The notes beneath the pieces were generated by a model, which was given only the letters and a program-made list of their open reading frames with translations, was not told the origin of the DNA and did not search any database. A stretch of DNA of 64,000 bases, taken from assembly GCA_951406725.2 (NCBI GenBank), contig OX597823.1:3038001-3102000 (forward strand), written 5' to 3'. Each line of letters starts with the position of its first letter. Positions within the stretch are counted from its first letter, which is position 1. Both the position numbers and the translations under genes were made by a program. This document shows, piece after piece, positions 8,218 through 61,631 of the stretch. This DNA is from Octopus vulgaris. Its lineage: Eukaryota.

Positions 8218-8259
<42 letters not shown>

Positions 8260-8382
8260 GAATTAAGGAACGGCCATAATAGCTCGTTCAACCCACTAGA
8301 AATAACAGCCAAAGGCTTCAACCGCAAATTAGTAGTAATTCCGTAAATCAAGAGAAAATTAAAAAAACATTTACCCTTTTCC

Positions 8383-8485
8383 ACTTTATACAATGCATCG
8401 TTTCATCGTTTTTTAATGGTAAAATCAGCCTGATTAAATTAAATCAAGCTAATCTTCCATAGGCCAACAGATTCATCAGTAAAGT
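8383..8485 (-). ncRNA. Type I hammerhead ribozyme, extended stem II
   Basis: Reverse complement of the 9309-9411 motif. Confidence 0.8.
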
Positions 8486-9308
8486 AAGCCAGGAGAGAGA
8501 TATATTTACACGAGGCGGCACCACTACCGCTTCGGCAATATCTAACCTAAAATTTTCAAAATCATCGTACTCGCGCCAATTTATCGGCAGCAAATATAAG
8601 CTGCCGATTCCATTTCGGAATTAAACAGAAAATTCATAATTAATCAATATAGGGTAGCAAAAAATTCAGCAGAAATTATTTTGCTACCAGCGTCTAGTGA
8701 GAAAAAAGGAAATAGTCAGAGACTATTTATAAATTCAACAGTAAAATTAAGGAACGGCCATAATAGGTCGTTCAACCCACTAGAAATAACAGCCAAAGGC
8801 TTCAACCGCAAATTAGTAGTAATTCCGTAAATCAAGAGAAAATTTTTAAAAATTAATTAAAAAAATTTAATTTAATCAGGCTGATTTTACCATTAAAAAA
8901 CGATGAAATGATGCATTGTATAAAGTGGAAAAGGGTAAATGTTTTTTTAATTTTCTCTTGATTTACGTAATTACTACTAATTTGCGGTTGAAGCCTTTGG
9001 CTGTTATTTCTAGTGGGTTGAACGACCTATTATGGCCGTTCCTTAATTTTACTGTTGAATTTATAAATAGTCTCTGACTATTTCCTTTTTTCTCACTAGA
9101 CCGCTGGTAGCAAAATAATTTCTGCTGAATTTTTTGCTACCCTATATTGATTAATTATGAATTTTCTGTTTAATTCCGAAATGGAATCGGCAGCTTATAT
9201 TTGCTGCCGATAAATTGGCGCGAGTACGATGATTTTGAAAATTTTAGGTTAGATATTGCCGAAGCGGTAGTGGTGCCGCCTCGTGTAAATATCTCTCCCT
9301 CCTGGCTT

Positions 9309-9411
9309 ACTTTACTGATGAATCTGTTGGCCTATGGAAGATTAGCTTGATTTAATTTAATCAGGCTGATTTTACCATTAAAAAACGATGAAACGATGCA
9401 TTGTATAAAGT
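9309..9411 (+). ncRNA. Type I hammerhead ribozyme, extended stem II
   Basis: Stem I ACTTTA/TAAAGT; core CTGATGA (9315-9321); stem II closed by ATC/GAT; GAAA (9390-9393); stem III ACGA-TGCA-TTGT; GUA cleavage triplet. Confidence 0.8.
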
Positions 9412-9635
9412 GGAAAAGGGTAAATGTTTTTTTAATTTTCTCTTGATTTACGGAATTACTACTAATTTGCGGTTGAAGCCTTTGGCTGTTATTTCTAGTG
9501 GGTTGAACGACCTATTATGGCCGTTCCTTAATTTTACTGTTGAATTTATAAATAGTCTCTGACTATTTCCTTTTTTCTCACTAGACCGCTGGTAGCAAAA
9601 TAATTTCTGCTGAATTTTTTGCTTCCCTATATTGA

Positions 9636-9697
<62 letters not shown>

Positions 9698-9729: not shown

Positions 9730-9946
9730 TATATAGACGCACGCCATGATAGATCGTTAGCTACTACACGCATTTTTTTCTCTCCTTGTTTCTCTCCTTG
9801 TTTTTTTCTGTGTATCTTTCTGTCGAAGAGCGTAGGCTCGAAACGTAAAAGACTTCTATTTCTATTCCTGAGCGCTATACTAATACATTTGTTTGTTTGT
9901 ACTCCACCTGCCCTCGTCTTTTGTTTATTTTCGTAAACATTCCCTT
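9730..9946 (+). mobile_element. Solo Penelope-like pLTR with minimal hammerhead variant (9815-9852)
   Basis: Homologous to 61385-61592, which lies downstream of a GIY-YIG ORF; ends in (TA)n. Confidence 0.75.
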
Positions 9947-19783: not shown

Positions 19784-19842
<59 letters not shown>

Positions 19843-20064
19843 TCAATATAGGGTGGCAAAAAAAATTTTGTAGAATTCTTTTGCCACCAGCGGCCTAGTA
19901 GGAAAAAATTAAAATAGTCATAGACCATTTTTAAGTTCAACATCAACAATAAAGGAACGGCCATAATAGGCCATTCACCCACTAGAAATAACAGCCAAAG
20001 CTTCAACCGCAAATAAAAGTTAATTCAGTAAACCAGGAGAAAATTTAAAAACATTTACCCTGTA

Positions 20065-20171
20065 ATTTCTTATACGATATACCGTTTCATCTGCTGATTA
20101 ATGGTAAACTAACCTGATTAAATTAAATCAAGCCAATCTTCCACAGGCCCTCAGATTCATCAGTAAGAAAT
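20065..20171 (-). ncRNA. Type I hammerhead ribozyme, extended stem II
   Basis: Reverse complement of 20719-20825. Confidence 0.85.
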
Positions 20172-20718
20172 AGCCCAAGACGGAACAGATATTTTCACGA
20201 GGCATTTCCGACGTTGCCAAGTTAATATCTGACCTAAAATTTTCAAATCGTCGCACTCGCGCCAAATTTATCGGCAGCAAATAAATATAAGCCGTCGATT
20301 CCATTACGGAATTAACCAGAAAATTCATAATTAATCAATATAGGGTTTTTAAATTTTCTCCTGGTTTACTGAATTAACTTTTATTTGCGGTTGAAGCTTT
20401 GGCTGTTATTTCTAGTGGGTGAATGGCCTATTATGGCCGCTCCTTTATTGTTGATGTTGAACTTAAAAATGGTCTATGACTATTTTAATTTTTTTCCCTA
20501 CTAGGCCGCTGGTGGCAAAAGAATTCTACAAAATTTTTTTGCCACCCTATATTAATTAATTATGAATTTTCTGGTTAATTCCGTAATGGAATCGACGGCT
20601 TATATTTATTTGCTGCCGATAAATTTGGCGCGAGTGCGACGATTTGAAAATTTTAGGTCAGATATTAACTTGGCAACGTCGGAAATGCCTCGTGAAAATA
20701 TCTGTTCCGTCTTGGGCT

Positions 20719-20825
20719 ATTTCTTACTGATGAATCTGAGGGCCTGTGGAAGATTGGCTTGATTTAATTTAATCAGGTTAGTTTACCATTAATCAGCAGA
20801 TGAAACGGTATATCGTATAAGAAAT
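20719..20825 (+). ncRNA. Type I hammerhead ribozyme, extended stem II
   Basis: Stem I ATTTCTTA/TAAGAAAT; CTGATGA (20727-20733); stem II ATCTG/CAGAT; GAAA (20802-20805); stem III ACGG-TATA-TCGT; GUA triplet. Confidence 0.85.
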
Positions 20826-20934
20826 TACAGGGTAAATTTTCTCCTGGTTTACTGAATTAACTTTTATTTGCGGTTGAAGCTTTGGCTGTTATTTCTAGTG
20901 GGTGAATGGCCTATTATGGCCGTTCCTTTATTGT

Positions 20935-21046
<112 letters not shown>

Positions 21047-21249: not shown

Positions 21250-22838
21250 TGATTGATTGATTGATTGATTCTAGTTTCAGCTTATGAGCTGTGGCCATGC
21301 TGGGGCACCGCCATTTGGTGTTGCTACTTGGTTTCACTTCATGGAGGCTTTCTAGCAACTGCTATTTGGTGCATGAGAGAGTTCGATGCAGCTGCCCTCA
21401 TCTGCCCCTCCTGCCGTGAAGTTGGTTCATCTGGGACACCTGACAGGAAGAGATCCAGCTTCATTTTAAAGACATCTGTATCCACCCCATGCAGGTCTCT
21501 CAGGTTCTTCGGGAGGATATTGAAGAGCTGTGGGCCTCGGAAGCCCAGGCTATCACAGAATCTTGTCCTACATCTTGATGGCAGGTTTGGAGTCCTAGGC
21601 ACCACGCAGTGGCGCCCAGTTCTGGCATTTGCGTAACTCTCGATGCCAAAGTTCAGGACACTTCCCTCCAGGATCTTCCAGATGTATATTATGGCATATC
21701 TTTCCCGCCTACGCTCCAGGGAATATAATTTTAATCTCTTGAGTCTTTCCCAGTAGCTTACATTCTGCATAGAGGCTATCTTCTTTGTGTAGCTTCGTTG
21801 GATCGCCTCAAGTTCTGTGATCAACTTGACGCTGGATGGTGACCATAGCTGAGAGCAATAGTCAAAGTGGCTTAGGACAAGTGTCTTCCAGAGGACCATC
21901 ATGGTTTCTTGTTCTCTTGTTCTAAAGGTTCTAAGAATCCAGCCAGCCAGCCGTCTACATTTCATTGTCAGTTTAGCAACATGTACATGAAAGGTCGCGT
22001 CATCACTCATGTGAATACCCAGGTCACGCACTGATTGTGCCTCTGGGATTGCAATCCCTCCGGGTCCAGTGTATTCATTGGGTATTGCATTCAGTTTTGC
22101 ATGCTGATAGTATAAAGCTTGAAACTTTCCAGCATTGAACTGCATGCTATTCTTTTCAGCCCACTTGTATATTTCGTCCAGCTCACATTGCAGGTGTTTA
22201 GTGTCCTCAGGGTTCTGTATTGCCTGTGAAACTTTTGTATCATCTGCATAACTTGTGATCGTGGCTCTCTGCGTGGCTGAGGGCATGTCTGAGAGGGCCA
22301 TTATGAACAGTAGTGGTCCCAGAACAGTGCCCTGCGGAACACCGCTCACTATTTGTGTGTTAATGGAGGTGGCCCCATTGGCTACTACCACCTGACTTCT
22401 ATCCTTCAGAAAGTCATGAAGCCATTCTCCCAGTTTTCCAACTATGTTGAGATCACGCAGTTTGTGACATATCATTCCATGATCGACTTTATCAAAGGCC
22501 TTTGCAAAGTCGAGATATATCACTTCCACATTTGAGTGGTTGAGCAGCCGTTTCAGCACCCAGTCATAGTGTTGTAGGAGCTGCGTTAAACAGCTTCTTC
22601 CTGGTCGGAAACCATGTTGGGTGTCGGGCAGCAAGTCATTCTCTTCAAGGAAGGTGATCAGCTTCCTTCTGACTATTCGTTCCATGACCTTGCTGATGTG
22701 TGAGGTCAGAGAGATAGGTCTATAGTTCTTGGCTTCCGCTCTGCTACCTCCTTTATGAATGGGGCATATTTTACCTTCCTTCAGTTTTCCTGGAAGTTTG
22801 CCAGCTGCAAGGAAGCTCTGAAAGAGGACCTGCAGTGG
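21247..22838 (-). mobile_element. 5'-truncated CR1-group LINE with (AATC)n tail
   Basis: Intact RT frame, short 3' UTR and (GATT)n on the + strand; same family as 61632-64000. Confidence 0.92.
21339..22838 (-). CDS. Reverse transcriptase (LINE ORF2 C-terminal part)
   Basis: Motifs YRPISL, QHGFRPGRS, YLDFAKAFDKV, GVPQGTVLGPLLF, YADDTK, RDLG. Confidence 0.92.
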   Translation of the reverse strand, partial: PLQVLFQSFLAAGKLPGKLKEGKICPIHKGGSRAEAKNYRPISLTSHISKVMERIVRRKLITFLEENDLLPDTQHGFRPGRSCLTQLLQHYDWVLKRLLNHSNVEVIYLDFAKAFDKVDHGMICHKLRDLNIVGKLGEWLHDFLKDRSQVVVANGATSINTQIVSGVPQGTVLGPLLFIMALSDMPSATQRATITSYADDTKVSQAIQNPEDTKHLQCELDEIYKWAEKNSMQFNAGKFQALYYQHAKLNAIPNEYTGPGGIAIPEAQSVRDLGIHMSDDATFHVHVAKLTMKCRRLAGWILRTFRTREQETMMVLWKTLVLSHFDYCSQLWSPSSVKLITELEAIQRSYTKKIASMQNVSYWERLKRLKLYSLERRRERYAIIYIWKILEGSVLNFGIESYANARTGRHCVVPRTPNLPSRCRTRFCDSLGFRGPQLFNILPKNLRDLHGVDTDVFKMKLDLFLSGVPDEPTSRQEGQMRAAASNSLMHQIAVARKPP

Positions 22839-22929
22839 TATATATATATATATGCAAATGAAAAATAAGAAAATGGAGATATTGAAGTTAATAAGAGTTT
22901 ATTATCAGCAAAATAAAATCGATCATTAT

Positions 22930-29131: not shown

Positions 29132-30740
29132 CAGTGGGGGAAATAAATATTCGTACATGTCAAAATTCTTTATTTATCTAATTTCTTATGAACAGAAATG
29201 GGATATACCAATACTATATTTGTATACACATGCTTAAACTAAAAATATGCAAAAGAAACTTATAAATTATAGTAACTAAAGAATTTATATACAATCATAA
29301 ATATTAAGGGGTGAAAAAAGTATTCGTAAAGAATAAATTTATGATTTTCTATGCCACAAAATACTGTTAGAATAATATTTTTTTACTAAAACTTTCTCAT
29401 TTGTTCCAATAATCTTATCAGTTGTCATTTTTAAGTGTCAAAACGCTAACTTCTTCATTCAGCACTGAGACAACATAAAGTAGTATCGTAATAATGGTGG
29501 AAAGTAAAGAACTCACAAATACAGTGAAAAACTTAATTATTGAACAGTGGCAAGCAGGTAAAAGTTACAGGAAAATATCAGAGACCCTCTGTATTCCATT
29601 TTCTACCATATCTTCATTTATTCAAAGATATAAAAAAAATCAGGAACTGTTGAAAACAGAATATGATCCAGTGCACCATGCAAGATTTCCCCTAGATCTT
29701 TAAGAAAAAGGAAGTGAAGAATCGAAAAAAACGCAATGATCACCAGAAAGGAGTTGCAAGAAGATTTGTTAGCTTCAGAGACTAGTGTTACACTATGAAC
29801 AATCAGCAATGAACTTCATAGGAATGAACTGTCACACTCTCCTAGAAAAACTCCGCTGTTGACTAAAAGGCATAGAGATGCCCGTTTAAAATTTGTTTAT
29901 GAACATAAAGATAAACTGATACATTCTGGGAAAATGTTCTATGGACAGACGACTCGAAAATTGAATTGATTGGAAGAAATTCGCGTAGCCATGTTTGGAG
30001 GAAAGATGGTACTGCCTATTCGGCGAAAAACACAATTCCTACCATAAAGTTTGGAGGTGGCAACATCATGGTGTGGGGGTGTTTCTCTGCAAATGGTACT
30101 GACAATTTACATGTGATAGATGGTAGAATGAATGCAGAGATGTACCAAAATATTTATAACAATAATTTATGGGACTCTGTAGAAAAGCTCCAGCTTTGTG
30201 AAGGGTGGGTTTTAAAACAGGATAACAACCCTAAGAACACGGCAAAGTCTACCAACAAATGGATTGTCGATCACAATATAAAATTATCAGAAAGGCCAAG
30301 CCAGTCACCAGAATTGAACCCCGTTGAAAATTTGTGGCGTTATTTGAAAATTAAAAGTCATTCAAGAGCCCCAACGTGCATTGCAGATTTGAAGAAAATT
30401 TGTCAAGAAGAATGGGAAAAAATTCCTAAAGAAACATGCGAGTCATTGATTAAGAACTACAAGAAGAGATTGGTTGAAGTGGAACTGAATAATGGTTATG
30501 CTACGAAGTATTAAATCAGAATTATCAGTTATTTATGTTCTGTACGAATACTTTTTTCACCCCTAAATATTTATAATTGTATATAAAGTCCTTAGTAACT
30601 ATAATTTATTAGTTTCTTTTGCATGTTCTTAGTTTATGCATGTGTATGCAAATATAGTATTGGTATATCCCATTTATGTTCATTAGAAATTAGATAAATA
30701 AAGAATTTTGACATGTACGAATACTTATTTCCCCCCACTG
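29132..30740 (+). mobile_element. Full-length Tc1 transposon (DD34E), ~200-bp IR-DR-type TIRs, TA TSD
   Basis: TA|CAGTGGGGGAAATAAATATTCGTACATG...CATGTACGAATACTTATTTCCCCCCACTG|TA. Confidence 0.95.
29494..30514 (+). pseudogene. Tc1 transposase, frameshifted
   Basis: HTH N-terminus (GKSYRKIS), WTDDSKIEL, GGGNIMVWGCF, QDN-34 aa-E (SQSPELNPVENLW). Confidence 0.93.
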
Positions 30741-35197: not shown

Positions 35198-35243
35198 GAC
35201 ACCTGATGAAGGCTGGAGTGTATATCAGCCGAAACGTTATGTT
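35198..35243 (+). ncRNA. Minimal type I hammerhead (Penelope pLTR-type)
   Basis: GACAC-CTGATGA-A-GGCTG...CAGCC-GAAA-CG-TT-ATGTT. Confidence 0.7.
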
Positions 35244-46104: not shown

Positions 46105-46744
46105 TTTATATGATTAAGACGTTTATTTTCTATTCTGGTTTTTATATATTTCTATACATTATATTTGTATCTATAATTTATTTTAAGCCGAATCATAATA
46201 CGATCCTTGTACAAACGAAAGAACAAGAATCTCCTCTGGAACTTTTATCTTCCACCGGTGTTTGTAATCGATGGTGAGATGTGCAATGATTTTGCGACTA
46301 TCTTATATTTTACAGAGAAATTGGAGGCCCCGAATGTAAGCCACCACATTATGCATAATATAGTTCCCTATTTCTAACTCAAATTCTGTCCTCAATAATT
46401 ATAGATCTCTATTTCCAAATGTAATTCTTTTTCTTCTCGTTCAGTATATAACTATAACACGCATTCTTGTCTGTCTCTTGACAAGGCTTCTTTTCTCCAG
46501 CGTTCACCACTTCACCTCGTTAGGGTTAAACAGCCCTTACCGAATGTTTTCACTGTCCTGTTTTTGTTAGCAGCTTTGACGTTCCACGTATCTCAATTTT
46601 TATTTAATTTGCTTTGGGGAGCAATTGCTTTGACGAAGACGCATCTTGTTGCACTACTCGCAATGCGGAGTAGGTAAATCTGCCAACAATTGAGGAAGGG
46701 TTGTTTTTTATGCTGCCTTGGCGCTATAGTTCTCAATATATAAT

Positions 46745-47307
46745 GGTCGCCATAGCGTCGGCTGAGGGCTGGTAGCTGTGTACAGTCGCCCCAATGCCGC
46801 CCAGAGCGAGCTCTGGTCGCCATAGTGTCGGCTGCGGGCCGGTAGCTGTGTACAGTCACCCCAATGCCGCCCAGAGCCGAGCTCTGGTCGCCATAGCGTC
46901 GGCTGCGGGCCGGTAGCTGTGTACAGTCGCCCCAACGCCGCCCAGAGTGAGCTCTGGTCGCCATAGCGTCGACTGTGGGCCGGTAGCTGTGTACAGTCGC
47001 CCCAACGCCGCCCAGAGTGAGCTCTGGTCGCCATAGCGTCGACTGTGGGCCGGTAGCTGTGTACAGTCGCCCAAACGCCGCCCAGAGGGAGCTCTGGTAA
47101 CCATAGTGTCGACTGTGGGTCGGTAGCTGTGTACAGTCACCCCAATGCCGCCCAGAGTGAGCTCTGGTCGCCATAGCGTCGACTGTGGGCCGGTAGCTGT
47201 GTACAGTCGCCCCAATGCCGCCCAGAGCGAGCTCTGGTAACCATAGTGTCGACTGTGGGCCGGTAGCTGTGTACAGTCGCCCCAACACCGCCCAGAGCGA
47301 GCTCTGG
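46745..47307. repeat. GC-rich 70-bp minisatellite, 8 copies
   Basis: Unit starts at 46745, 46815, 46886, 46956, 47026, 47096, 47166, 47236. Confidence 0.95.
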
Positions 47308-49239: not shown

Positions 49240-51035
49240 GTTATGCCTAGTGTGCCATATATTTGGTTTTGCATTTAGTGTTGTACTAGTCAATGTCTAA
49301 AAAAATAGATAAATAAAAATACGAGAATTATGTTTGTTTTAAAACTTGAGCTTACATTGAAAGTATTTTGCGTAGGATATGAGCAATTCCCATGAGCACT
49401 ATCTTTTGAATTTCTGCCATTTTAGGGTTTCCTGGTATCTGAGTTAGGTAGCAATCAGCCCCTTTTGCTATCATTCCCAGGGCACCTATGACAACAGGTA
49501 TTGTTTTAGTTTTCAGGTTCCACATTTTGCTGATTTCTATTTCAAGATCTTTATATTTGCTCAGTTTTTGGTAGGTCTTGACAGATACGTTTATATCGAT
49601 TGGGGCAGTCATATCAATGAGGAGGCACTTTCTTTGTCTGAAGTCTTTCAATATGATGTCTGGCCTATTTGCATCTATCTTCCTGTCAGTTTGAATGGTG
49701 AAGTTCCAGAGGAGTGAGATGTGGTCATTTTCAAGCACAGGAGGTGGATTGTGTTCCCACCAGTTTTTTTCATGGGGCAAATCCAGGTTTTTGCAAATTA
49801 CCCAGTGAATATATTGTGCTGCCCTATCATGCCTGTTGAGATACTCTGTAGGCGCTAGAAGACTGCACTTGGAGACAACATGATCAATGGTTTCATTTTG
49901 TTGTTGACATACACGACATGTTGGGCTACTGCCGTTCTTTAATATGTTGGCCTGGTAGTTCCTTGTTGGTAGCCATTGATCTTGAGCTGCTATGATAAAC
50001 CCTTCTGTTTCAGATTTTAAGCCAGAGGCCATTAGCCATTGATGGGTCAGGGCTTTGTCAATACCTGCATTATTCGCTCTCTTTGGGTATTTGCCATAGA
50101 GAGGTGTTTCTTGCCATTTATAATTCAGAATATCTAAGGCAGCAGTTTTAGCACGGGTTTTCATGCGCTTAGCTTTTTCTGTGCTTGTTTCTTGTATGTC
50201 TAATTCCGAAATTTGTTGTATTCGGAATTCACTTAGATATTCCTTTGCCTGTTTTGTTACTAAGTATGATGCTTTCTTGTTTAACATCCAGTCCTCAGAG
50301 TTTTTCAGGTAGGTGTCTAGGCCAATTGTAGCAATCTTCATTGTTATTGCCAGTTGTAAAAGTCCACGGCCTCCTTCGTTTCTTGGCAGATAAAGTCGTT
50401 CTATATCTGCCTTAGGGTGGTGCATTCTATGCATTGTCAACAGTTTCCTTATTTTTCTGTCGAGCTGACATATTTCAGTAATTGACCAGGTAACGATATT
50501 GAAACTGTAAATCACGACTGGTATGGCTAATGCATTGATCGCTTCGATCCTGTTTCTCGCATTCAGCTCTGTCTTGAATATTGCTCTTACTCTACGATAA
50601 CATTCTCTCCTGATCCTTTCCTTCATCACTGAATGCCTTATTCCATCCCCTTCAATTACCCCTAGGTACTTGTAGCTCTCCGCTGGGTCTAATTCTTTTA
50701 TGACATTCTGCTGGTCAAGGTTAACGTTAGATGTTTCTGTCATTTTTCCTTTGATAAAGGTAACTTTTGCACATTTATCGAGGCCTAATTGCATTCTGAT
50801 GTCATCACTGAATTGTTTAACAATCGCTAGTCAGCCCTTGAGTTGTTGGTCATTTTTTGCCACGAGCTTTAAATCATCCATGTAAATGAGATGATTTATA
50901 TTTTTATCAAACATTTTATAGCCGTACTGCGCGTCATTGAGCAGTTTTGAGAGAGGTATTAAGGATAAACAGAAGAGGAGTGGTGACAGTGAGTCGCCCT
51001 GGAAAATGCCACATGAAATTTTTACATCACCAGCA
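49240..51035 (-). mobile_element. 5'-truncated R4/Dong-type LINE between (CAA/TAA)n tracts
   Basis: GIFQGDSLSPLLF, HLIYMDDLKL, long ORF 49352-50794. Confidence 0.92.
49352..50794 (-). CDS. RT C-terminus, CCHC knuckle and RLE endonuclease
   Basis: YKYLG, GGRGL, AAQDQ, CRVC...ETIDHVVSKC, RHD, NRPDIIL...LIDM, KY.DL, PVVIGALG; an in-frame stop just upstream shows a pseudogenised copy. Confidence 0.9.
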   Translation of the reverse strand: MQLGLDKCAKVTFIKGKMTETSNVNLDQQNVIKELDPAESYKYLGVIEGDGIRHSVMKERIRRECYRRVRAIFKTELNARNRIEAINALAIPVVIYSFNIVTWSITEICQLDRKIRKLLTMHRMHHPKADIERLYLPRNEGGRGLLQLAITMKIATIGLDTYLKNSEDWMLNKKASYLVTKQAKEYLSEFRIQQISELDIQETSTEKAKRMKTRAKTAALDILNYKWQETPLYGKYPKRANNAGIDKALTHQWLMASGLKSETEGFIIAAQDQWLPTRNYQANILKNGSSPTCRVCQQQNETIDHVVSKCSLLAPTEYLNRHDRAAQYIHWVICKNLDLPHEKNWWEHNPPPVLENDHISLLWNFTIQTDRKIDANRPDIILKDFRQRKCLLIDMTAPIDINVSVKTYQKLSKYKDLEIEISKMWNLKTKTIPVVIGALGMIAKGADCYLTQIPGNPKMAEIQKIVLMGIAHILRKILSM

Positions 51036-58513: not shown

Positions 58514-59908
<1,395 letters not shown>

Positions 59909-60209: not shown

Positions 60210-60270
<61 letters not shown>

Positions 60271-60272
<2 letters not shown>

Positions 60273-61591
60273 TCTGCAATTCCTTGTACATCGGCCAAAC
60301 GGGACGCCGCTTGGCTGACCGGTTCGCGGAACACCTTCGTGACATCCACCTTGCGAACGACACACCGGTCTCACGCCATTTCCGCTCCACCGGTCACTCC
60401 TTGCAACACCTATCTGTGTTCGGTTTGTCCTTACACAGAGGCCATCCGGATTCCCGTTTGCGCCGTGAACAGGAATTAATCTTCTCTCTTCGCTCTTATA
60501 CGCCATTTGGTCTCAACTCTCCCCCCTCCTCATCTAACCCCCTCTCCCCCTCCTCACCTATCCTTTCCCCCCCCGACCCCTACTTCTTCAGTCCTTCATC
60601 CTTTCACCCCTACTCCCCTTCCCTTCTTCCCTCTTTCTCCCTCCCTCCTTCCCTCTTCCCTTCCCTCTGCTCCCTCACTCCCTCACTCCCCTTCTCTCTC
60701 CCCCTCTCCCTCTTTCCTCCTTCCTCCCCCCTCCTCCCCTTCCTTCTCCCCCTCCTCTCTCTCCCCCATCCTCTCCCCTTCCCCCTCTCCTCCCTCCTCT
60801 CATCCCCCTCTCATCCCCCTCTCATCCCCTCTTCTTCCCCTCCCCTTCTCTCCCCTCCCCTTCTCCCCTTCTCCCCCTCTTCTCCTCACTACACCACACG
60901 ACTTTACACATCACATCATATAAGATGTGCCATACTAATACATACACCAACTAATACATACTAATACGTACTAATACATACTAATACATACACCAACCCT
61001 ATACATACACACGTCCAGACCCCTCATACGCACTTATACTCTCTCATACACACACACACACACACACTTATACATACTAATACGTACTAATACATACTAA
61101 TACATACTAATACATACACCAACCCCATACTTACGCACGTCCAGACCATCCTACGCACTAATACTCTCTCATACACACACACACACACACACACACCCTT
61201 ATACATACTAATACATACACCAACCCTATACATACACACGTCCAGACCCCTCCTACGCACTATTAGCTGGTCCTTCGACCTATTATCAACCCTATTATCA
61301 ACCCTATTATCAATCCTATTATCTCCCCTTATTTCGCTCTCGCGTCTCATGTTTGATCTTTGACCTCTGGCCGAAATCAGATCGCCATGTTGATTCGTTA
61401 GCTACTGCACGCATTTTTTTCTCTCCTTCTTTCTGTGTTTTTTTTCTCTCTGTGTATCTTTCTGTTGAAGAGCGTAGGCTCGAAACGTTAAAGACTTGTT
61501 TTATTTATATTTCCTGAGCGCCATACTAATACAATTGTTCGTTTGTTTTCCACCTGCCTTCGTCTTTTGTCTATTTTCATAAAGCTTCCCG

Positions 61592-61592
<1 letters not shown>
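60271..61592 (+). mobile_element. 5'-truncated Penelope-like element: GIY-YIG C-terminus, polypyrimidine tract, pLTR with hammerhead variant (61457-61494)
   Basis: [18 protein letters not shown]...PVSRHF...RREQELIFSL...P.GLN (60271-60520); (TA)n on both flanks. Confidence 0.88.

Positions 61593-61631
<39 letters not shown>

Follow-up and report, generated by a model that had tools for sequence, protein, structure and literature searches.

A long insert in helix II of four octopus hammerheads

Hammerhead ribozymes in the Octopus vulgaris DNA that we analysed (a stretch of 64 kb, referred to here as the window) hold about 68 nt in stem II in place of a short hairpin, which raises the question of what this insert is and how it relates to cleavage. 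The original prediction was that the insert is a multibranched accessory domain that tunes or switches the ribozyme. Cores with paired helices I and II occur four times in the window, at 9315 and 20727 on the plus strand and at 8479 and 20163 on the minus strand, each with an insert of 68 nt. Indeed, the inserts of the two families, A (9322-9389) and B (20734-20801), lie between CTGATGA and GAAA where they were first placed, the minus-strand cores carry identical copies of them, and the hairpins, GGCCTRTGGAAGAT, TTTACCATTAA and GGGTAAA (9418-9424 and 20830-20836) quoted at that time are all present in the sequence. These are type I hammerheads, with the core CUGANGA, GAAA and NUH around three helices and with helix I open; helices I, IIa and III all show pairs that have changed on both sides. 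The features are given below.

8256..9643, both strands: retrozyme insertion A, 485-nt unit; two head-to-head arms, minus 8256-8851 and plus 8865-9643; (TA)n outer ends
8370..8490 (ends approximate), minus strand: second complete family A hammerhead, core 8479, same insert
9304..9307, plus strand: loop I 5' strand GGCT, predicted pseudoknot partner of 9329-9332
9308..9314, plus strand: helix I 5' strand, pairs with 9406-9412; two-sided change in 3 of 7 pairs
9315..9321, plus strand: core CUGAUGA, from the hammerhead core scan
9322..9328, plus strand: helix IIa 5' strand, pairs with 9384-9389; T9325 bulged in family A; two-sided change in 3 of 5 pairs
9329..9333, plus strand: internal loop II 5' strand GGCCT, faces TAAAA at 9379-9383; predicted pseudoknot partner of loop I
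9334-9352 with 9359-9378, plus strand: helix IIb, ~19 bp, A/U-rich; apical loop TAATTT at 9353-9358; contains TTTACC
9390..9405, plus strand: GAAA core, 4-bp helix III with palindromic TGCA loop, and GUA triplet, from the core scan
3' of 9405, plus strand: predicted cleavage site, placed by the hammerhead consensus
9417..9439 (end approximate), plus strand: downstream hairpin containing GGGTAAA, from fold prediction
19835..20938, both strands: retrozyme insertion B; two head-to-head arms, minus 19835-20346 and plus 20346-20938; (TA)n outer ends
20054..20176 (ends approximate), minus strand: second complete family B hammerhead, core 20163, same insert
20714..20836, plus strand: family B hammerhead; loop I GGCT 20715-20718, core 20727, insert 20734-20801, GGCC 20741-20744, predicted cleavage 3' of 20817, GGGTAAA 20830-20836

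No Rfam family matched the 64-kb window at the gathering score, and a search of 9250-9480 at E values up to 10 returned no hammerhead, just chance matches to snoRNAs and miRNAs (E at least 0.14); a limit of the models is the likely reason for this miss. In family B, about 11 nt right after GGGTAAA (~20833-20843) are missing from the plus-arm copy but present in the minus-arm copy and in most others. Elsewhere in the window, a minimal hammerhead motif at 35203 (plus strand), with CTGATGA and a 5-6 bp helix II and without helix III, adjoins AAT repeats and short 3' ends of LINE-like type; at locus L172, a motif of this kind comes after a Penelope-like ORF.

The insert varies in length across many related families

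We searched the genome (2.8 Gb in 227 contigs) for the hammerhead core with an insert of 58-78 nt and obtained 1,781 matches, compared to 26 for the reversed pattern, which served as the control; insert-bearing hammerheads are not due to chance. Similarly, two further core patterns gave 929 matches versus 15 and 456 versus 4, although the match sets partly overlap. No excess was found for longer inserts of 70-100 nt (12 matches versus 11 in the control). The distant families E, G, H, I, J, K, M and F were recovered with core-anchored patterns, some of which were also anchored on the downstream GGTAAA. After filtering for an intact core, at least 4 pairs in helix I and GGTAAA downstream, 138 distinct copies remained. 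From these families we took 24 representatives, each a real copy and one per subfamily, leaving out family F, the short-stem families and obvious deletion copies.

The insert is the same length in both families within the window, as the original prediction stated, but this length is not fixed. Most copies of family A have an insert of 67 nt, and the 138 distinct copies range from 40 to 77 nt, growing through short A/U-rich repeat units. Families A and B are 81% identical, so that the original prediction had compared close relatives, and their equal insert length is explained by this kinship.

Several other repeats bear on the limits of the group. Family F (L131, L141, L142, L148, L155, L160, L173-L185) and L111-L117 are related repeats with a 63-nt A/U-rich helix II and a 2x2 internal loop, and they also include copies with 16-35 nt inserts; 16 of 29 rows (family F plus unclassed long-insert rows) matched at a profile E <1, while reversed controls gave 0. 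Several hammerhead repeat families among L091-L110 have an ordinary stem II of 13-19 nt. In some of these, CTCTTATTTCTAG lies 90-105 nt past the cleavage site and resembles a motif upstream of the first 3' end of the long-arm elements. Comparison of the short-stem repeats with the long-arm families gave no BLAST match and a best profile E of 0.66, and on this result they were dropped as relatives; a CTYWTTTCTAG-like motif is shared, and any kinship is at best putative. The first pair of helix II is non-standard (A.A or A.C) in E3, H, J (L253, L208, L301), E1, E2, C2 and A2, in the case of E3 despite the formation of tandem arrays.

The insert is predicted to fold as a single unbranched arm

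That the stem II extension is large, conserved and structured was correctly recognised at the outset. The A and B inserts each fold as a single hairpin (z of -5.4 and -4.5), and none of 200 shuffled sequences folded as well. The order of elements is helix IIa, an internal loop, an A/U-rich helix IIb of about 19 bp and a UAAUUU loop, and there are no branches. All 24 representatives have this same order of helix IIa, internal loop and A/U-rich helix IIb, with 13-25 pairs in total, and 20 of the 24 folds have UAAUUU or UAUUUU as their apical loop. The hairpin singled out in the original prediction is present, but it is just the top of the ~19-bp helix, the base of which pairs TGGAAGA with TTTACCA; thus, the motifs described as conserved are mostly the two strands of helix IIb. 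The multibranched domain, in contrast, finds no counterpart, as unconstrained minimum-energy folds contain a multiloop in 0 of 24 representatives and the sampled frequency is at most 1.5%.

We scored the full model on 15 copies of families A-E and found that 93% of cells are paired and that 9 pairs have two-sided changes. None of 500 shuffles reached this score in a control that ignores kinship, and controls in which the model was slid gave 29-48% paired. Helix IIb alone is 95% paired in the 15 copies, with one-sided changes, mostly to G-U, in 8 of 19 pairs and a two-sided change in 1, and its covariation by itself is weak (21 of 500 shuffles match it). Helix IIb re-forms from different sequences in distant families, and the sequence of this helix turns over freely. 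Families G, I and K have GTAAAT...ATTTAC at the base of helix IIb, which resembles the downstream GGTAAA hairpin, a likeness that could stem from an old duplication or from a shared binding motif. This downstream hairpin, a small one formed by an invariant GGTAAA and then NGTTTTT, lies 3' of helix I in all long-arm families.

What might such an arm do? The most probable role of helix IIb is that of a structural cap, flexible in length, over the internal loop, which it would close; a switch is less likely. One could suppose instead that helix IIb is a functional module that docks a Penelope-like protein or a host double-stranded-RNA-binding protein and thereby gates cleavage or circularisation. 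The arm is indeed kept in 24 of 24 representatives with ~67% column identity across families, the apical loop recurs in 20 of the 24 folds, and family F retains its long arm without the motifs of the loop contact described below; moreover, the available text on the anole Penelope-like hammerhead reports that this ribozyme needs its protein to cleave (PMC11167929). We nonetheless regard docking as rather unlikely, given an insert that ranges over 40-77 nt and grows by short A/U-rich units, and a helix IIb sequence that turns over freely.

A predicted contact between loop I and the internal loop of helix II

The original prediction also suggested that loop II might make a tertiary contact with stem I, and such a contact probably exists, but through GGCC and GGCT rather than through TTTACC and GGGTAAA. 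GGCC (9329-9332), which is the 5' strand of internal loop II, is unpaired and complements the GGCT just 5' of helix I (9304-9307). The positions of these two motifs agree with the spacing of the canonical hammerhead contact, which according to the accessible part of its description has a 6-bp helix I and a 4-bp helix II (PMC4209133). In every one of the 24 representatives a GG precedes the core by 9-12 nt, and in 23 of them a CC follows it by 6-9 nt; in the one exception, A1, CT stands in place of CC and loop I is changed to GGCC. Among the 138 distinct copies, loop I has the GG in 127, loop II has the CC in 130 and both are found in 121.

The third pair in the 121 copies is C-G in 92, U-A in 15, U-G in 5 and a mismatch in 9, and the corresponding counts among the 24 representatives are 17, 4, 1 and 2. 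In family E, both sides have switched (GGT and ACC), and one E copy is a U-G intermediate. The pair on the other flank is more varied, with 7 U-A, 3 A-U, 1 G-U, 9 U.U and 4 other mismatches among the 24 representatives. We shuffled loop I against loop II over three variable positions and found 36 of 72 Watson-Crick pairs for the 24 representatives (27.0 expected, p 0.0004) and 16 of 33 for the 11 major families (11.1 expected, p 0.006). A four-position version of this test was not significant (p 0.06-0.11), nor were single flanking positions (p 0.12-0.9). The GG-to-core and CC-to-core distances vary together (rho 0.67 for the 24 representatives; 0.58, p 0.06, for 11 families). GG and CC were located by searching fixed windows, and the pseudoknot was scored by core anchoring because MAFFT misplaced loop I in distant families.

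The complementary loop I and loop II strands covary, with the covariation coming from few independent events. The two G-C pairs are nearly invariant and therefore yield no covariation, the shuffle and distance tests ignore kinship, and the switch from C-G to U-A is one evolutionary event in one lineage, so that support for the pseudoknot is moderate. Opening the loop I and loop II strands would cost 1.9-3.7 kcal/mol. In families H-M, the CC is often predicted to be paired inside the arm and is unpaired in 14-76% of samples, and the related family F, with its 63-nt arm, has neither the GG nor the CC motif. GGCC was considered as a palindromic kissing site and rejected, since other families have GACC, AACC, CGCC or TGCC. 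With these points taken together, the contact between loop I GGCT and internal loop GGCC is likely on comparative grounds.

The alternative first put forward is a multibranched accessory domain in which a TTTACC/GGGTAAA pseudoknot and an alternative ATCT/AGAT pairing switch cleavage. The 6-bp complement is perfect in families A-D and E2, 98.9% of TTTACC/GGTAAA cells are paired among the 15 close copies, and the looser motif TTTRCY is kept in 15 of the 24 representatives. However, none of the 6 pairs shows a two-sided change, and the score was matched by 500 of 500 shuffles. TTTACC is absent from 16 of 24 representatives, including the array-forming E3, while GGTAAA is unchanged there, although this count tests loss of the insert strand only, since GGTAAA was used as a search anchor. 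It is replaced by TCTATC in E1, TTAATC in E3 and CTGTAT in H. Each of the two strands pairs more strongly nearby: TTTACC forms the 3' side of the helix IIb base, facing TGGAAGA, GGGUAAA lies in its own downstream hairpin in 3 of 3 circular folds, and freeing both strands would take ~14 kcal/mol compared to 4.1 kcal/mol for the duplex. The ATCT/AGAT pairing has a probability of 0.000 in both window copies and is possible in only six of the 14 representatives listed, all six in families A-D. With no multiloop in addition, we find this alternative very improbable.

We propose, as the account that we hold to be fairly probable, that the insert is an unbranched helix II extension of a type I hammerhead in a tandem non-LTR retrozyme, with a predicted pseudoknot of 3-5 bp between its internal loop and loop I. 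The internal loop would serve as loop II, its GCC/ACC strand being kept open by helix IIa below and helix IIb above, with helix IIb as the cap. This strand would pair with the GGC/GGU just 5' of helix I, replacing the usual non-Watson-Crick loop contacts, and the pseudoknot would align helices I and II in parallel for cleavage.

With the pseudoknot uncounted, the active fold is less stable than the local minimum by 5.2 (A) and 7.7 (B) kcal/mol, and 127 of 138 copies have a palindrome at the centre of helix III, so that help from a dimer or a protein is possible. The palindrome also bears on the suggestion that the arm is a by-product of selection for a self-paired circular RNA, without a loop-loop contact and with a weak or dimeric hammerhead. 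Folds of the circular monomer contain helix IIb in 3 of 3 and the complete active hammerhead fold in none, which speaks for this suggestion, as does the palindromic centre; in addition, mussel retrozyme hammerheads are reported to cleave without most canonical loop nucleotides (PMC7229834). This suggestion leaves unexplained why GG and CC are retained together at matching distances from the core and why the third pair is compensated, and we judge it improbable.

The hammerheads lie in a non-LTR retrozyme with Penelope-like insertion signatures

Both insertions in the window consist of plain tandem units without LTR organisation, and no stop-free frame of 120 aa or more overlaps either of them. 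Units are 463-494 nt (~490) with one type I hammerhead each, and arms with at least 7 hammerheads occur; the unit of insertion B is 483 nt in the window and 492 nt in most copies. Arms end at two fixed sites, ~131 and 233-238 nt past the predicted cleavage site. We considered 47 two-armed insertions in which both ends matched the end patterns (one locus gives two rows), and in 42 of the 47 there is one end at each site, with both ends at (TA)n, which has a probability of ~1e-8 under an even split (binomial sum). This suggests two priming sites that are each used once per insertion, as a ~105-nt version of the Penelope 'tail'.

Penelope-like elements are described, in the parts of the sources available, as having inverted and tandem arms, microsatellite targets and a one-sided 'tail' (PMC8557442), and as using two internal priming sites in vitro with cleavage of both strands (PMC11167929). 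The insertions here bear the same signature of an inverted 5'-truncated copy, partial tandems, (TA)n targets and two fixed 3' ends. Unlike the Penelope-like insertions described there, they have no ORF, their ends are ~105 nt apart rather than 30-40, and their hammerhead is full rather than minimal. The element that hosts the hammerheads is thus a non-LTR retrozyme bearing insertion signatures of the Penelope-like kind.

The life cycle would begin with tandem transcripts that self-cleave 3' of GUA into unit-length RNAs, which would then form circles, as proposed for other animal retrozymes; a Penelope-like RT-endonuclease would nick (TA)n, prime at the two sites and copy the RNA back. The genome contains a young Penelope-like family with an RT and a weak GIY-YIG match, in which 150 of 150 scored matches are identical over the query and 25 of the 26 copies with an end read terminate at TA-rich repeats. 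This one active RT/GIY-YIG family shares no sequence with the retrozyme units, the matches being low-complexity, and it is no more than a candidate mobiliser; an autonomous partner was not found. Pieces of Penelope-like ORFs also occur beside L172 and L247, with TA repeats or other repeats between them and the elements.

A 5'-truncated copy of the young family, with RT, zinc-finger-like linker and GIY-YIG, is found at 60269-61593 of the window, and open frames of up to 1,200 aa occur elsewhere in the genome. A lone terminal repeat of the family lies beside element A (9740-9945), and the terminal repeat holds a minimal hammerhead-like motif with U for the usual A6 (61467 and 9825). Near a family H copy, with other repeats between them, an open frame at L247:2233-3094 resembles the C-terminal region of a Penelope-like RT; by its motifs, this frame is putatively Naiad-like.

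At the RNA level, none of the records that carry the unit is listed as RNA. Contigs from 8 of 24 listed runs included closed-unit contigs in two runs, which fit tandem DNA as well as circles. These contigs are uninformative on ends, strand and level, and A-to-G differences in them are inseparable from genomic subfamilies.

Relation to known retrozymes and hammerheads

Tandem repeats that carry type I hammerheads are known as non-LTR retrozymes; circles are expressed from them in coral, mussel and axolotl (PMC7229834), and they have been proposed to derive from Penelope-like elements (10.64898/2026.07.22.740005, as far as its text was available). As in the accessible parts of these descriptions of metazoan non-LTR retrozymes (Cervera and de la Pena 2020, PMC7229834; Li, Clavereau and Pollet 2026), the octopus elements are non-coding, tandem and low in GC, have one type I hammerhead per unit with a short helix III and palindromic centre, and reach thousands of copies alongside co-occurring Penelope-like elements. 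The unit of 463-494 nt is longer than the 150-450 nt given in PMC7229834 and lies inside the 51-972 range of 10.64898/2026.07.22.740005. The main difference from the retrozymes described in these texts is in helix II, which has 40-77 nt compared to 4 bp and a small loop, and in the predicted Watson-Crick loop contact; also, the octopus elements are known from DNA, whereas circular RNA is reported there.

There is precedent for a loop I-loop II pseudoknot (PMC7936874). In the accessible text of Perreault et al. (2011, PMC3088659), a stem I-stem II pseudoknot is predicted in ~40% of hammerhead representatives, among all three types, with stem lengths constrained by the pairing and with a compensation test in a type II example. 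There, as is predicted here, base pairing between stems I and II replaces the non-canonical contacts; a long hairpin capping loop II, as found here, is not described in that main text (figures and supplementary alignments aside). A closer likeness is to the YGGC/GCCR hammerhead, in which a short helix is likewise followed by an internal loop with a 5' GCCR strand and an extra hairpin cap, and the GCCR strand is predicted to pair with YGGC on the other arm. In that precedent, a type III motif, helix I carries the internal loop with its hairpin and loop II carries YGGC. In octopus, the arms are swapped in a type I motif, and the extra hairpin reaches ~45 nt compared to ~20. By its sequence motifs, the octopus arrangement is the mirror image of the YGGC/GCCR precedent in type I topology. 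A more speculative and rather doubtful extension is that, in this swapped-arm HDV-like YGGC/GCCR pseudoknot, the UAWUUU-looped helix IIb docks a protein and so couples cleavage to loading of the RT-endonuclease and to two-site priming.

The octopus hammerheads are not a new ribozyme class, nor are they a demonstrated switch. They are a large set that is missed by Rfam in this search, with a helix II of 40-77 nt compared to the 4-8 bp reported for type I in the texts compared; among viral type I motifs, helix II is called long at 6-8 bp (PMC13725137). The open-access main texts searched, among them PMC6962438, PMC7761336 and PMC6155905, describe neither a retrozyme from a cephalopod nor a type I hammerhead with an arm of this kind. 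A dozen natural subfamilies provide ready compensatory and length variants for examining how a pseudoknot can replace the canonical loop contact, and they suggest that the YGGC/GCCR solution has been reached on either arm. Similarly, the near-strict rule of one end per site lets Penelope-type double priming of a non-autonomous RNA be read cleanly from the genome.

The remainder of the window holds ordinary transposon remnants, with matches to RVT_1, zf-RVT, Transposase_1 and DDE_3 at 21339-22898 (minus strand), 49352-50830 (minus strand), 58808-59500 (plus strand) and 29915-30514 (plus strand), and a GC-rich minisatellite of 70 nt at 46744-47307, with 8 copies and 93% matches.
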